Shown here: piece after piece, positions 25,462 to 58,321 of the stretch
Layout of the letters: every line of letters starts with the position of its first letter
Numbering within the stretch: the first letter of the stretch is position 1
Assembly: GCA_947629815.1 (NCBI GenBank)
Contig: CANRFG010000001.1
Location: 27,468 to 91,467, forward strand
DNA length: 64,000 nucleotides
Direction of reading: 5' to 3'
Source: an uncultured Bacilli bacterium
GTDB taxonomy: Bacteria > Bacillota_I > Bacilli_A > RF39 > UBA660
Notes under the pieces: model-generated
Database searches by the model: none
The model's input: the letters and a program-made list of their open reading frames with translations, nothing else
Told to the model about the DNA's origin: nothing
Program-made: the position numbers and the translations under genes

Positions 25462-26286
25462 TTATAAGTTATCTAATTTTTTAATAATTTTTTCTTTGTA
25501 TTTTTTCTTCTTTAGGTAATAATTGTCTACATTTTTTTCAATTTTTTCCCAATTTTCTATATTTTTATAATATTCTAATATTTCATCAGGATTTTCTTTT
25601 ATCATTCTTAAAAAGAATTGTGCTCTTAATATAGCAAATCTATATTTCAAATGGTTTTGCTTATAATATTCTATTTCATCACCCATATAATATGCTTTAA
25701 ATTCTGAAAAATCAGTTTTAATTTCATCTCTTATTGGTGTTATTTCAAGTTCCTTTTTTATTAAAGATGGTAATTTTACAATAGTTGGATTTATTAAGCT
25801 TTTTCCTTTTAAGATTGAATTTAAATCAGAAGTTGCTGTATTTTCGTCTTCAACTATAGTTTTAACCATGCCTGTTTCCAATCCTATATATTCATGCAAC
25901 ATTGTTTGATTAATCAATGAATTTGAATTATATTTAATATTATTATTGATATATTTTATATCTTCTATGTCAGTTATATTTATTAGTCTTTTAGTTGTTC
26001 CTATTTTTTGAGAATCTGTTGATGTTAACAAGTATAACCCTGCATCAATATAAATATTTTCATCATATACTCCATGATGAATCAAAGCACCTAACATATC
26101 ATCTTCTTCAAGAATTAAAGGCATAATAAATTCACTTTCATTATGACATTCAGAATAAAGTAATTTTATATAGTTTAAAACTTGCTTATCTTCATAAAAT
26201 TCTTTTAATTTTTTATTTTCTTCTTGACTTATTTTTCGAAATGCTTCAAAATGTTTTTTTAACATTTTTAAAAATTCTATTTGCAT
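25462..26286 (-). CDS. Hypothetical protein between rpmH and dnaA
   Basis: 274-aa ORF with GGAGG RBS; no recognised motif. Confidence 0.8.
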   Translation of the reverse strand: MQIEFLKMLKKHFEAFRKISQEENKKLKEFYEDKQVLNYIKLLYSECHNESEFIMPLILEEDDMLGALIHHGVYDENIYIDAGLYLLTSTDSQKIGTTKRLINITDIEDIKYINNNIKYNSNSLINQTMLHEYIGLETGMVKTIVEDENTATSDLNSILKGKSLINPTIVKLPSLIKKELEITPIRDEIKTDFSEFKAYYMGDEIEYYKQNHLKYRFAILRAQFFLRMIKENPDEILEYYKNIENWEKIEKNVDNYYLKKKKYKEKIIKKLDNL

Positions 26287-26391
26287 AATAAAACCTCCAT
26301 AATTTTTTTTATTATATCATATTCCTTTATTTGTTAAAATAAAAAATATTTCTTTTAATGATAAATTGGCATATCTTTATATTTAAATATT

Positions 26392-26564
26392 TTTTCCACA
26401 TTATTTTTTCTTTAAATTAAAACAATTTTATACTTTTCCACATAAATTGTGGATATTTTTTTTAAATTTATTAACATTGTATATTTCTTTTCCACATAAA
26501 TTGTGGAAATCGTATTTAGATATTTAAAAATTTAGAATTTTATGTGGCTTTTTAATGTGGAAAA
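26392..26564. promoter_or_regulatory. oriC part 1: DnaA-box cluster upstream of dnaA
   Basis: TTTTCCACA at 26392, 26434, 26488; reverse boxes at 26448, 26502, 26556; 20-bp unit TTTTCCACATAAATTGTGGA occurs twice. Confidence 0.88.
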
Positions 26565-26651
26565 AATTTTTTTTGTTTTTTTTCCTCATATTTATTTAAT
26601 TTTTAATAAATTTAATGTAAAATATAGTTAATTACTTCAGAGGTGTTGAAT

Positions 26652-28007
26652 ATGGATATAGATAATATATGGTCTTTATTTTTAGAAAAAATGAAACAAC
26701 AAATTAATCCAATGCATTATGACACTTGGTTTGCTGATACAAAATTAATTTCACTTGATGAGAATTGTGCGAAAGTATTAGTTCCTATGTCAGTTCATAA
26801 AAAACATTTAAAAGAAAACTATAATGACTTAATAGTAGATTTATTTACAGAAATAACAGGAACAAACTTTAATTTTGAATATGTATTAGAAGAAGAAATT
26901 AAAAACAATGTTACTATAGATACTAATGAGATAGGCGTTCCTTCAGTAACATTTGAATCTAATTTAGACCCAAAATACACATTTGATAATTTTGTTGTAG
27001 GTCAAAGTGATAAACATAAATTTGCTAAAGCTTCTTCCTTAGCTGTTGCAGAAAAACCAGGTTATATGTATAATCCACTATTCATATATGGAAAAAGTGG
27101 ACTTGGTAAAACTCATCTTATGCATGCAATAGGAAATTATATAACAAAAAATTCAAATATGAAGGTTTTATATGTAACAAGTGAAAAATTTGTCGAAGAT
27201 TTTATTAATATATATAGGAAAAATAAAAATGAAAATAATTTTGAAGAAGTTGATTCTTTTAAGAAAAAATATAGAGATATTGATGTTCTTATGATAGATG
27301 ATATACAATATCTAGAAATTGCAAACAAAACACAACAAGAATTTTTCAACACTTTTAATGAATTACATTGTAATAACAAACAAATAATTATATCTTCTGA
27401 TAGAACGCCTGATGATTTAAATAAATTAGAAGAGCGACTTAGAACTAGATTTAATTGGGGATTAACTATTGATATAGAACCACCTGATTTTGATTTAAGA
27501 ATGGATATAATTAATAAAAAAATAGAGGTTAATAATATATCTTCTGTTTTTCCACAAGATGTAAAAGAATATATAGCAAGTAATTGTACTTCAGATGTAA
27601 GAAAATTAGAAGGTGCGATTATTAGAGTTTCTGCTTATGCTGTTATGATGAATGGTTCTGAAATAACTTTAGATTTAGCTATAGAAGCATTGAAAGATTT
27701 TTTTGTTAAAAGTATTATTTCTAAAAATAAAATAGAACAAGTACAACAAGTTATCGCACAACATTATAATATTAGCGTTGAAGACTTAAAAAGTAAGAAA
27801 AAAACTTCTAATATTGCTATACCAAGACAAATAGCAATGTATATTTGTAGAAACATATTTGATGAATCACTTTCTAAAATAGGAATGGAATTTGGTGGAA
27901 AAGACCATACAACTGTTATGCATTCAGTTAATAAAATTAAAAATGAAATTGCAAACGATGAAGTTTTCAAAAATGAAATAAATAAATTAATAAGTAAGAT
28001 TAAATAG
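26652..28007 (+). CDS. dnaA: Chromosomal replication initiator DnaA
   Basis: YTFDNFVVG, NPLFIYGKSGLGKTHL, LMIDDIQ, RQIAMY, FGGKDHTTVMH. Confidence 0.98.
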   Translation: MDIDNIWSLFLEKMKQQINPMHYDTWFADTKLISLDENCAKVLVPMSVHKKHLKENYNDLIVDLFTEITGTNFNFEYVLEEEIKNNVTIDTNEIGVPSVTFESNLDPKYTFDNFVVGQSDKHKFAKASSLAVAEKPGYMYNPLFIYGKSGLGKTHLMHAIGNYITKNSNMKVLYVTSEKFVEDFINIYRKNKNENNFEEVDSFKKKYRDIDVLMIDDIQYLEIANKTQQEFFNTFNELHCNNKQIIISSDRTPDDLNKLEERLRTRFNWGLTIDIEPPDFDLRMDIINKKIEVNNISSVFPQDVKEYIASNCTSDVRKLEGAIIRVSAYAVMMNGSEITLDLAIEALKDFFVKSIISKNKIEQVQQVIAQHYNISVEDLKSKKKTSNIAIPRQIAMYICRNIFDESLSKIGMEFGGKDHTTVMHSVNKIKNEIANDEVFKNEINKLISKIK

Positions 28008-28141
28008 TGTAAAAAAAATAAGTTATTAAAATTTATTAACATGTAATTTACCTTGTAAAATATAATAAATTTAAACTTTTCCACAAAATCCACTTTAATA
28101 ATAAAAATAATTAATTAAATAAAAAAAAAGGAGTAAAAATT
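28008..28141 (+). other. oriC part 2: dnaA-dnaN unwinding region
   Basis: TTTTCCACA (28077-28085), AAATCCACT, then TTA ATA ATA AAA ATA trio-like repeats and an AT-only tract, same layout as the Bacillus basal unwinding system. Confidence 0.8.
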
Positions 28142-48134: not shown

Positions 48135-48824
48135 ATGAGTTTATGCCTTTTTAAAATAGTAAAGGAATGGATTGGGATTCTTTTTGTTATGGTTAGTTCG
48201 TTGTTTATTAATAATTCAACTGATAAAGTAACTGTTGAAAATAATTTAGAAAATATTAATACATCTACAACTGCTGAAGTGATTGAATATGATACAAAAA
48301 AGATATATAATGATAAATTAGCTATTGGAACTACTAATGTAATAACTGAAGGTGAAGTTGGAATTGTTTATAATGTTGATGGTGAAGAGGTTAAATTAAA
48401 GGAACCAATTACTGAAGTTATTGAGATTGGAACAGGTGCTAAAGACACATATACAGGTAGTATTACAGGATATGGTGCAGATTGCCCTGGTTGTTCTGGT
48501 TTTGTAAGTTGTAAAACTAAAGAGGGTTCTTATAATTTAGCGCAAAAAGGTGAATATTATAATGATTCTGAGTTTGGTAATTTAAGAATAGTAGCTGCTG
48601 ATAATTCATTATTTAAGTGTGGTACAGTTTTAGATATTACATCAAATGGTAAAACTATAAATGCAATTGTTTTAGATACAGGTTCTGCTCTTAGAAATAA
48701 TTGGAGAAATTATGGTAAGATTGTAGTTGATGTTGCTTTTAAGACTGAAAAAGACCCTGAAGTATACAAGATAACAGATAGAAGCGAAAATGTTAAGTTT
48801 GCTGTTAAAAGATGGGGCTGGTAA
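48135..48824 (+). CDS. 3D-domain (YabE-like) cell-wall lytic protein with partial G5
   Basis: N-terminal anchor, KEPITEVIEIGT (G5 end), ITGYG, IVAAD, AIVLDTGSA, VDV; after tatD like yabE. Confidence 0.75.
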   Translation: MSLCLFKIVKEWIGILFVMVSSLFINNSTDKVTVENNLENINTSTTAEVIEYDTKKIYNDKLAIGTTNVITEGEVGIVYNVDGEEVKLKEPITEVIEIGTGAKDTYTGSITGYGADCPGCSGFVSCKTKEGSYNLAQKGEYYNDSEFGNLRIVAADNSLFKCGTVLDITSNGKTINAIVLDTGSALRNNWRNYGKIVVDVAFKTEKDPEVYKITDRSENVKFAVKRWGW

Positions 48825-48932
48825 AGTCCTATTTTTATTTAAATTTATTATATAAATCTGTAAAGTAGATATAATAAAAGTGTAAAGTTTTATACTTTTT
48901 TTCATTTTTTTTAAAATTATGCCCCAAACCAC

Positions 48933-48963
48933 TTGACAATTGTCATGGGGGGGGGGGCATAAT
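48933..48963 (+). promoter_or_regulatory. Poly-G (G11) phase-variable promoter
   Basis: TTGACA-ATTGTCAT-G11-CATAAT, 19-bp spacer; G9 would give 17. Confidence 0.8.
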
Positions 48964-48994
48964 ATAAGTGAACAATAGAAAGAAGGAAGTAAAA

Positions 48995-50065
48995 ATGAAG
49001 AAAAAAGGTTTTACATTAGTAGAATTACTTGCAGTAATAGTAATACTTGCAATAATAGCGTTAATAACAACACCAATAATAATGAATGTGGTTGAATCAT
49101 CAAGAAAAGGAGCAGCAACATCATCAGCATATGGGTACATTGATGGAGTAAAGATAATGTATGCAAAAGAAATGTTATCAGGAAGTGATTTTACATTAGA
49201 AGGAACATTTAATGTAGATGCAGATGGCAAATTAGAAGGACATGAAGTAGAAGTAGAAGGAACAAAAGCAAAAGGTGGATATCTAACATATAATAATGGA
49301 AAAATAACAAAAGGATGTTTAACAATAGGAGATTACAAAGTAACAATAGAAAATGATACAGCAAAAGAAACAATAAAAGGTGCATGTGAAGTTGCAGTTC
49401 CACAAGCAAAATCATTTGCAGACGATTCATGGGCAACAATAATAGCAAATGTAAGAGCAGGAAATACAGATGCATATAATGTTGGAGATACAAAAGAAGT
49501 AATATTAACAAGTGACGATGAAGAAATAGCAGGTACATATACACTTCGTATAGCGAATAAATCAACACCTAGTGAATGTTCACAAGAAGATTTTTCACAA
49601 ACAGCATGTGGCTTTGTAATAGAGTTTGAAGACATAATAACTACACATGAAATGGATACAAAAGATACAATTATGGGAGGTTGGCCTGCTACAGAATTAT
49701 ATGGTTATTTAACGAATAATATATACAATGCATTACCAAATGACCTAAAATTAGGGATAAGAGATACAATAGTAATATCAAAATCTGATTTAGAAGATAA
49801 ACCTATCCTTACAACAACAGATAAATTATACTTATTATCACCTAGTGAAGTATTTGGTGGGACAAAATCACTAGATTATTATAAAAACCATAATTCTTCA
49901 TGGTGTATAAAAAAATATAATGGTAGTGCAGAGAATTGGTGGCTTCGTGATGCCTATGCCTCATCAGGAGGTATTGAGTTTGAAAGTTTAGATATTGATT
50001 GTGACAATGTAAGTGTTAGCCCCACTAATATTAATGGCGTTTCACCAGCTTTTAGAATAGGATAA
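48995..50065 (+). CDS. Type IV pilin-like protein with C-terminal DUF6273-like (putative C-type lectin fold) domain
   Basis: KKGFTLVELLAVIVIL prepilin motif; DDSWATI, TDKLYLLSPSEVFG, WWLR, GVSPAF. Confidence 0.8.
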   Translation: MKKKGFTLVELLAVIVILAIIALITTPIIMNVVESSRKGAATSSAYGYIDGVKIMYAKEMLSGSDFTLEGTFNVDADGKLEGHEVEVEGTKAKGGYLTYNNGKITKGCLTIGDYKVTIENDTAKETIKGACEVAVPQAKSFADDSWATIIANVRAGNTDAYNVGDTKEVILTSDDEEIAGTYTLRIANKSTPSECSQEDFSQTACGFVIEFEDIITTHEMDTKDTIMGGWPATELYGYLTNNIYNALPNDLKLGIRDTIVISKSDLEDKPILTTTDKLYLLSPSEVFGGTKSLDYYKNHNSSWCIKKYNGSAENWWLRDAYASSGGIEFESLDIDCDNVSVSPTNINGVSPAFRIG

Positions 50066-50273
50066 ATCAAATTAAAAATATATATTTTATAATATTTATT
50101 TGCAACAACATAGGAAATATAAAATTTATTTCCTTTTTTTGTACTTATTATATGTATTATTTTTTAAATAATACATATAATAATATATAAATTATATAAA
50201 AATAATATTATTTTTATATTAAAATATTGACAAATTAATATAATTATTTATAATATTATTTATAGAAAGTGAG

Positions 50274-50603
50274 ATGAATATTATGGCTAATTTAACAACT
50301 GCTATAAGTGTTCAAATAGATAGAGATGATAAAGAAAAAGCAACTGAAATATTACAAAAATTAGGTGTTAGTATGAGTGGTTTAATAAATATGACTATTA
50401 AGCAATTAATAATGAGAGAAAGCATACCATTTGATGTATCAATTCCAAAGAAAGAAAATAATTTAAATAAGTATTTTACTAAAGAAGAACTTAATAAAAC
50501 TATTAAAGAATTAGCTTATATTGAGAAACATCCAGAAGAATATAAAAGTTACGACGATATAGAAGACTTAAAGAAGGCATTATTATCTGATGATGAATTA
50601 TAA
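50274..50603 (+). CDS. RelB/DinJ-family antitoxin
   Basis: VQIDRDDKEKATEILQKLGVSMSGLINMTIKQ...IPF; overlaps the toxin gene. Confidence 0.88.
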   Translation: MNIMANLTTAISVQIDRDDKEKATEILQKLGVSMSGLINMTIKQLIMRESIPFDVSIPKKENNLNKYFTKEELNKTIKELAYIEKHPEEYKSYDDIEDLKKALLSDDEL

Positions 50604-50877
50604 TATAAAATATTCAAAAGAATTTAAAAAATCATTAAAAAAAGTAATAAAACAGGGCAAGAATATTGATAAATTATTAGAAGTAGTAGATATGCTTTCT
50701 AAAAAGCAAAAATTAGATGAAAAATATAAGGACCATCCTTTATATGACAATAAATTATTTAAAGGGTGCAGGGATTGCCATATAGAGCCTGATTGGATAT
50801 TAATATATAAGTATTTAAATGATGAACTTATTTTATTATTAGTAAATACAGGTAGCCATAGTGAAGTATTAAATTAA
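50590..50877 (+). CDS. YafQ-family mRNA interferase toxin
   Basis: YSKEFKKSLK, KDHPL, RDCHIEPDWILIY, TGSHSEVL. Confidence 0.92.
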   Translation: MMNYNIKYSKEFKKSLKKVIKQGKNIDKLLEVVDMLSKKQKLDEKYKDHPLYDNKLFKGCRDCHIEPDWILIYKYLNDELILLLVNTGSHSEVLN

Positions 50878-57877: not shown

Positions 57878-57964
57878 AATAATTATGTTTATAAACTTAA
57901 GGAAATTTATTTCCTTTTTTTTATTAAAATGATACAATATAATTATGCAGAAAGTAGGGATAAT

Positions 57965-58321
57965 ATGAAAGGTTTCACACTTGTTGAATTATTGGCTGTT
58001 TTAGTAATTCTTGCTTTAATATCTTTAATAATAGTGCCATCTATTATTGATAGTTTAAATAATTCAGCAGATAGACTTTATAAAGAACAAATCGATTCAC
58101 TAGAGTATGCTGCTCAAAAATGGGCTGTAAAAAACAGTAATTTAGTAGAAGAAAATAAAGAATTTTCTAGATGTGTTACTATAGATGAACTAAAAGAAGG
58201 AGAATTTATAACAGAAAAAAAAGTTATAAATCCAAAAACAAGAAAAGAAATGACAGGTTGTGTTAATATAACATATGATGAAGAATATAACCAATTTGTT
58301 TACAAATATAAAGAAGAATAG
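57965..58321 (+). CDS. Small type IV pilin/pseudopilin-like protein
   Basis: MKGFTLVELLAVLVIL prepilin motif, C-terminal Cys pair. Confidence 0.85.
   Translation: MKGFTLVELLAVLVILALISLIIVPSIIDSLNNSADRLYKEQIDSLEYAAQKWAVKNSNLVEENKEFSRCVTIDELKEGEFITEKKVINPKTRKEMTGCVNITYDEEYNQFVYKYKEE

Follow-up and report, generated by a model that had tools for sequence, protein, structure and literature searches.

The stretch of DNA analysed here (64,000 nucleotides, referred to as the window) comes from an uncultured bacterium of the rabbit gut and carries a run of eleven guanines directly upstream of a gene for a pilin-like protein, raising the question of whether the length of that run governs expression of the gene by phase variation. 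The sequence-only reading had placed the run between two promoter hexamers, TTGACA and CATAAT, 19 bp apart, and both direct inspection and a script confirmed this arrangement. The promoter string reads CAC-TTGACA-ATTGTCAT-GGGGGGGGGGG-CATAAT-ATAAG, with the tract located inside the TTGACA-19-CATAAT spacer, as in promoter-spacer phase variation by simple sequence repeats. It is the only G or C run of six or more nucleotides that the script found in the window, which is composed of 13.5% G and 11.5% C (∼25% GC) and contains A and T runs of up to nine nucleotides. Because no other G or C run of that length occurs in such low-GC DNA, G11 is far beyond expectation from composition or chance. A consensus promoter scan, which allowed spacers of 16–18 nt, had missed the TTGACA/CATAAT site only because its spacer is 19. 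Coordinates of the promoter, the gene and the surrounding elements are collected in Table 1.

Table 1. Elements in and around the G-tract promoter (window positions).
Feature	Position	Strand	Remark
TGTAAAG motifs (two, 22 nt apart)	48859-48865 and 48881-48887	+	upstream of promoter
Imperfect dyad, 48 nt	48916-48963	.	ATTATG-CCCCAAACCAC-TTGACAA / TTGTCAT-G11-CATAAT
C-rich 11-mer CCCCAAACCAC	48922-48932	+	degenerate mirror of G11
−35 hexamer TTGACA	48933-48938	+	direct reading and script
Spacer, 19 nt	48939-48957	+	ATTGTCAT + G11
G11 homopolymer	48947-48957	+	candidate slipped-strand tract
−10 hexamer CATAAT	48958-48963	+	aligned with AATAAT in tract-free paralogues
Ribosome-binding site GAAGGAAG	48982-48989	+	conserved in alignment A2
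Prepilin-type protein gene, 356 aa	48995-50065	+	Pfam N_methyl and DUF6273

We took the two hexamers to be a real promoter because the −35, the −10, the 5′UTR (∼25 nt) and the ribosome-binding site are conserved in the promoters of homologous paralogues (alignment A2), with TTGACA unchanged in six of six; this conservation supports their assignment as the likely promoter of the gene starting at ATG 48995. An alternative −35 element positioned 17 bp upstream of CATAAT, GACAAT, was rejected by inspection as a 1/6 match. Searches with the exact pattern TTGACAATTGTCATGGGGGG returned no matches in genome contigs and two unrelated chance matches in metagenome contigs, both with G6. Two properties of the promoter speak against a switch: its −10 element is CATAAT rather than TATAAT, and its transcription start site is a predicted one.

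Two paralogues (L006/L007 and L014), found in the same rabbit-gut assemblies, share the −35, the −10 region, the 5′UTR and the ribosome-binding site, and have AT-rich spacers of 17 nt (TTGACA-aatgttatataaaagta-AATAAT). In the alignment, the G11 promoters exceed these tract-free promoters by exactly two columns, a difference that, together with the conserved promoter parts in six homologues, favors a switch. A more distant relative (L008–L013) carries TTGTTA-17-TATAAT, and a tract-free paralogue of a sister species carries TTGACA-17-GATAAT. Since the tract-free paralogue promoters of two species have 17-bp spacers, a spacer of that length is the norm of the promoter family. The spacer of a tract-bearing promoter amounts to 8 + n, and a tract of nine guanines would therefore restore that norm; the earlier proposal that two fewer Gs would produce 17-bp spacing thus matches what the tract-free paralogues display. 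On the basis of general promoter knowledge and this norm, it is plausible that the G11 allele is OFF or low.

We believe that the G11 promoter is credibly read as a homopolymer-spacer phase or volume switch of the pilin gene, and place the probability of this reading at roughly 0.6; the uniqueness of the tract in the window and its placement in the spacer both argue for it. In such a switch the 31 bp would constitute a sigma-A-type promoter of an orphan, modular type IV pilin gene, and the length of the tract would change by slipped-strand mispairing in replication, with G11 giving a detuned 19-bp promoter, G10 an 18-bp promoter and G9 a 17-bp promoter. In this way, transcription would come under a heritable, stochastic and reversible volume control, with most of the population residing in the weak state and a minority of cells expressing more. 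Independent slippage at each of several loci could lead to a combinatorial display of alternative pilin-borne binding modules.

The product of the gene is best read as a modular type IV pilin carrying a putative binding module. It consists of a leader (MKKKG/FTLVE), the alpha-1 helix and a pilin head, with a DUF6273 module at its C-terminal end; the class III signal peptide (MKKKG/FTLVELLAV) and the hydrophobic alpha-1 helix are those of a type IV pilin, and Pfam assigns N_methyl to residues 2–25 (E = 2e-7) and DUF6273 to residues 216–354. A profile of 80 homologues, searched against the PDB, matched the N-termini of the solved type IV pilins PilE1, MshA and PilA, and the best PDB sequence match was 8pfb, the chain of which is deposited as ‘Type IV pilin PilE1’. 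An AlphaFold2 model (pLDDT 90.6) contains a helix spanning residues 8–61, a beta-sheet head and a globular C-terminal domain. Comparison of the model with the PDB using Foldseek gave no match at E ≤ 0.001, and weak local matches to C-type lectins at a probability of 0.38. Homologues of the pilin number more than 6000 matches, labelled as members of Bacilli MAGs.

Modular type IV pilins of Gram-positive bacteria include PilB and PilC of Streptococcus sanguinis, in which, as here, a binding module is grafted onto a pilin module that has a class III signal peptide and an alpha-1 helix. The present protein differs in that the grafted module is DUF6273 and in that its gene is an orphan, distant from pilus machinery. 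DUF6273 has been modelled as C-type-lectin-like and occurs in DGR-targeted receptor-binding proteins of phages (PMC10743442); it is also described as the C-type-lectin-like N-terminal domain of a gut IgA protease (PMC12402451). The DUF6273 pilin is presumably displayed on the pilus as an adhesin.

Within the window, the gene order is a TatD gene and a G5-domain gene, the pilin gene, a RelB/YafQ pair and ksgA; the gene neighbourhoods examined there contained no prepilin peptidase and no assembly ATPase. The stretch from TatD to ksgA is a conserved housekeeping order in Firmicutes. At 48135–50877, the pilin gene and the RelB/YafQ toxin-antitoxin pair stand between the TatD/G5-domain genes and ksgA, and GC content is 30% at 48–50 kb versus 25% overall; this suggests that the pilin gene and RelB/YafQ form an inserted islet. 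A second prepilin-type gene (57929–58321, 130 aa) lies directly upstream of parA/parB and has no G tract. The first 60 residues of the pilin, used as a protein query, returned only short fragments of at most 85% identity, and a screen of the N-termini of all 240 retrieved proteins revealed no further near-identical paralogue.

To our knowledge, what is understood of phase variation by repeat tracts comes almost wholly from a small number of pathogens. The promoters of porA (poly-G) and opc (poly-C) of Neisseria meningitidis, reportedly the subject of work by van der Ende in 1995 and Sarkari in 1994 (both listed in PMC5084427), resemble the present one in having a G/C homopolymer between the −35 and −10 of a surface-protein gene, where slippage alters spacing and, in steps, promoter strength. 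They differ in that they serve outer-membrane proteins of a Gram-negative pathogen, in having no known surrounding dyad and in being single loci rather than a repeated cassette. In porA, G11 corresponds to the optimal 17 bp, whereas at the window locus it corresponds to 19 bp. The vlp genes of Mycoplasma hyorhinis are surface-protein paralogues, each with a poly-A spacer tract, that are turned ON and OFF combinatorially; they belong, like our locus, to a low-GC Bacilli/Mollicutes lineage and to a paralogue family with a homopolymer in the promoter spacer, but their tracts consist of A instead of G, they encode lipoproteins and not pilins, and they are not known to have a dyad.

In Treponema pallidum, tp0126 likewise has a poly-G tract between −35 and −10, which is optimal when the distance between the two elements is 17 nt, and tprL tracts contain 7–11 Gs, with 9 strongly predominant (PMC7864442). 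As at our loci, promoter poly-G is found there at several paralogous surface-protein genes (tp0126, tprE/G/J and tprL), and the within-strain lengths of tprL, with a strong mode and minority variants, are like the distribution of G11 with G10–G13 described below. The tp0126 and tpr poly-G promoters (PMC7864442), together with porA and opc, are published precedents that favor the switch. Treponema is different in being a spirochaete pathogen with mapped start sites and reporter data, the window locus being known from sequence alone.

A tract of invariant length in populations would, according to the sequence-only reading, speak against phase variation; in metagenome contigs the tract was found not to be invariant, with G10, G12 and G13 present beside G11 and one G10 anchored to the locus. 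Among locus-anchored copies, G11 was observed in the window, in L002 and in L136 (identical to L016). The G10 copy (L137) is anchored in the unique upstream gene, with its tract 9 nt from the end of a contig at ∼4x coverage, and the contig of a further copy (L003) breaks inside the tract. In Logan contigs, variants accompanied G11 as G10 in runs X5–X7 (11–15% of depth), as G10, G12 and G13 in X8, as G10 and G12 in X9 and X12, and as G12 only in X10 and X11 (16–18% of depth); no variants were observed beside G11 in X1–X4. Overall, G10 accounted for 2–15% of depth in X5–X9 and X12 and was absent from X10 and X11, and G12 accounted for 6–18% in X8–X12; the promoter of the sister species also showed G10, in X6. 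Variants of G10–G13 occurred in 9 of 13 runs, on short k=31 unitigs, so that they carry no locus or strain assignment. The variants in X10 and X11 do not resemble PCR stutter because they are exclusively insertions and reach 16–18%, whereas stutter is deletion-biased. G9, the predicted optimum, was found in none of the 13 runs. The only RNA run found (X17) contained paralogue fragments alone, with zero coverage of the promoter or of the gene-specific part.

This length polymorphism, together with the locus-anchored G10, is consistent with a switch. Against it stand the possibility that the variants are paralogue or strain differences rather than products of switching, and the fact that the single anchored G10 lies near the end of a ∼4x contig. 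The modal length is G11 at every assembled locus in two species, and G11 is also present in a third lineage (L080). With G11 as the mode throughout and no G9 among the observed lengths, the 19-bp spacing is better regarded as the normal state than as a chance OFF allele, and such uniformity resembles the outcome of stabilising selection or of a mutational equilibrium more than that of free switching.

We consider it scarcely credible that G11 arose as an error of sequencing or assembly, or that it is a neutral run without function. Homopolymers are error-prone and L003 ends inside the tract, but the same G11 with the same flanks was recovered in four independent ENA assemblies and in Logan contigs of three studies, as well as in a GTDB MAG of another species. 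Consensus hexamers border the tract on both sides, and at least 119 analogous loci, most with a perfect TATAAT (see below), argue further against such an origin.

The promoter is part of a repeated cassette. Across the promoter and the initial ∼100 nt of the gene, Logan contigs from rabbit-gut metagenomes reach 5–50 times the flanking depth, and each genome has the promoter cassette at no fewer than three loci. In the sample nearest to the window (X1–X4), three upstream contexts, each at single-copy depth, join the promoter at ∼48906, and every contig crossing the tract has G11. One assembled copy (L001, ERZ27249348) is identical to the window in promoter, gene and downstream genes from 48907 on, and has RsgA-Rpe-VanY upstream; this context of RsgA, ribulose-phosphate epimerase and VanY adjoins the promoter in independent Logan runs too. 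The L001 contig (∼4x) represents either an assembler chimera or collapsed second locus, or a real recombination between cassette copies.

The sequence-only reading had suggested a search for the same promoter ahead of other pilin paralogues, and it was indeed found there. A sister species from the rabbit gut (Bacilli MAG Lapin-030__bin39) contains two tandem pilin paralogues of 593 and 510 aa on one contig, with N-termini of MRKGFTLVELL, and both are preceded by ATTATGCCCAC(G/A)CCCCAC-TTGACA-AAAGTCAT-G11-CATAAT. The pilin motif is their sole Pfam match, and their C-terminal modules therefore differ from that of the window's pilin. In the sample of the sister species the cassette is at several times single-copy depth, with at least three upstream contexts. 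A third low-GC Bacilli MAG (L080) has a mirrored ATTATA, a C-rich 11-mer ending in C6, a −35 element, G11 and TATAAT. The multicopy cassette and the tandem G11 pair of Lapin-030__bin39 lend weight to the switch.

Inside the gene, blocks 49015–49096 and 49302–49342 have metagenome depth far above their surroundings, and the loose ends of contigs diverge at 49087, 49115 and 49389; the paralogues look mosaic, with common 5′ blocks and different 3′ modules. At the same locus in L016/L136 (ERZ27249343), which has G11, ∼122 nt are deleted directly after the −10 (window 48967–49088). The deletion removes the 5′UTR, the ribosome-binding site, the start codon, the prepilin leader and part of the helix, leaving a gene called at 325 aa; with coverage of ∼4x, it could reflect either misassembly or a dead allele.

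An alternative that we regard as very unlikely is that the promoter and 5′ gene cassette serve mainly as a recombination substrate, by which pilin genes or their 3′ modules are moved between three or more copies, with the tract and the dyad around it being incidental or break-stimulating. The identical promoter and gene in the RsgA-Rpe-VanY context (which is real in independent runs), the mosaic depth along the gene with its two shared blocks and the 122-nt deletion just past the −10 would all fit such a role. However, L001 and L016 come from ∼4x assemblies, in which repeats give rise to chimeras, the contig layouts contain no strand-changing or inversion joints, and the exact placement of the tract in the spacer would be left unexplained.

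The G11 promoter is also embedded in an imperfect dyad, which the sequence-only reading had missed and the arms of which are 24 nt each, 79% complementary and separated by 0 nt. Its core palindrome is TGAC-N4-GTCA; ATTATG mirrors CATAAT, and the C-rich 11-mer mirrors the G11 tract. At the equivalent position, L030 and L083 have CCCACGCCCCA and CCCACACCCCA, and L080 has AACTCCCCCCA. The mirror segment is 11 long in all three lineages with the dyad; the differences among lineages are compatible with independent decay of an ancestral C11. As single-stranded DNA, the window dyad folds with a dG of −13.6 kcal/mol (z of −3.4 to −3.9), and the dyads of the sister species are stronger (−20.5 and −19.3 kcal/mol, z about −7). 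Tract-free paralogue promoters gave no comparable fold signal, and a search of Rfam yielded a chance-level match only. A general need of G-tract promoters for a hairpin was rejected, the median z being 0 over 120 loci, with only five below −3.

Two known types of element were considered for the dyad and set aside. A MerR-type activator promoter is unlikely because the dyad is centred at 48939/48940, at the 3′ edge of the −35 rather than in the middle of the spacer; the neighbouring genes encode the G5-domain protein and RelB/YafQ, and no merR-family or other regulator gene is adjacent. The arms abut, and the contig layouts of the 13 runs contain no strand-changing joints, which excludes an inverton. 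The nearest mirror-image precedent is the combined promoter of hifA and hifB in Haemophilus influenzae, reportedly described by van Ham in 1993 (listed in PMC11868660 and PMC5084427), where a variable spacer repeat likewise lies in the symmetric promoter region of fimbrial genes. There the repeat is a TA dinucleotide between two divergent genes, whereas here nothing is encoded leftward and the mirror tract is degenerate. The dyad may have remained from a bidirectional variable promoter of the hifA/hifB kind, may be a regulator site, or may form a structure that affects slippage. Further upstream, the TGTAAAG motif of Table 1 is shared by the homologous promoters of L006, L014, L084 and L008 (TGTAAAA in L001) and is not enriched across the whole window; the pair is a possible regulator site, and its belonging to the promoter system is uncertain.

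The dyad raises the alternative of a regulated element that does not switch, in which the dyad would bind a symmetric regulator or form a cruciform-type structure, G11 and its 19-bp spacing would be functional, selected and controlled in trans, and the length variants would be rare deleterious slips. We judge this unlikely. It would be in keeping with a significant dyad here and a much stronger one in the sister species, with the co-occurrence of dyad and tract (the tract-free paralogues having neither) and with a length of exactly G11 at all assembled dyad-bearing copies (the window, L001, L002, L136, L030, L083 and L080). Yet a dyad centred at the 3′ edge of the −35 is unlike those of MerR-type 19-bp promoters, a regulator gene does not adjoin the locus, and the left arm decays differently in each lineage, suggesting that no strong sequence constraint acts on it. 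A pure G11 would moreover be hard to keep unless slippage or selection for mutability maintained its purity, and the variants reach 5–18% of depth.

The simple switch model explains the exact G11 at every dyad-bearing copy least well. A distinctly improbable variant that would account for it is a mirror-symmetric switch, ATTATG-C11(degenerate)-TGAC-N4-GTCA-G11-CATAAT, in which the C-rich arm, aided by a factor or by a hairpin/cruciform, holds the tract at 11; the 19-bp promoter would represent a regulated resting state, and expression would be released by slippage or by a factor acting in trans. If true, a structured switch of this kind would be a previously undescribed way to constrain or tune a contingency locus.

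Similar promoters proved to be widespread. A scan for TTGACA-N(5-11)-G8-N(0-6)-ATAATAT in one genome per species returned at least 119 loci (L017–L135), from lineages that include, among the matches listed, Selenomonadales, Christensenellaceae, other Clostridia, Treponema, Streptococcus and Patescibacteria. A perfect TATAAT is present in 104 of the 120 matches listed, ATAAT alone having been required, and the listed tracts range from G8 to G20 with a mode at G9. Spacers among the matches listed measure 14–24 nt, with 17, 28 and 34 cases at 17, 18 and 19 nt, respectively; this peak at 18–19 rather than 17 counts in favor of the regulated, non-switching element. Downstream ORFs of the matches listed encode a hydrophobic N-terminus in 57 of 96 cases (59%), versus 34% of control ORFs. 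Many of the listed loci precede genes for signal-peptide, lipoprotein or prepilin-type products, several MAGs have three to five loci, and prepilin-type proteins are encoded downstream at several listed loci in unrelated lineages. C-runs of four or more upstream of the G-tract promoter are modestly enriched among the matches listed (9 of 119, versus a background of 3%). That G-tract promoters exceed chance expectation can be argued, from internal features of the matches only.

Length differences were also observed within this wider set. In Streptococcus mitis MAGs (L039 and L048), the same surface-protein promoter with identical flanks has G11 in one and G9 in the other, and the copies of a promoter in a Parcubacteria MAG differ as G8 versus G9. 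In Bacilli MAG Lapin-016__bin64 (L047), two G10 promoters 2 kb apart on the minus strand (5888 and 7910) precede paralogous secreted proteins (MMKKLFMSF...), with TGATAATAT and TGATATTAT, respectively, after the tract. The switch reading of the window locus draws support from the at least 119 similar loci and from the G9 and G11 alleles of S. mitis.

In the literature that we searched, work on phase variation in gut commensals centred on invertible promoters, and no survey of TTGACA-Gn-TATAAT promoters in gut commensals was found. Our observations suggest that an uncultured low-GC lineage of gut Bacilli uses poly-G promoter spacers to vary the display of modular pilin adhesins at several loci, and the wide scan suggests that the poly-G spacer design is common ahead of genes for secreted proteins across many host-associated lineages. 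Were this confirmed, metagenomes could be read directly for tract lengths as a record of the surface structures switched on or off in vivo, and slippery tracts would explain assembly breaks at such sites.

Elsewhere in the window, the GC skew changes sign near 26 kb (region ∼26000–28100), where the ORF at 26643–28007 is, by its position, what we take to be dnaA, and the window probably spans a replication origin.
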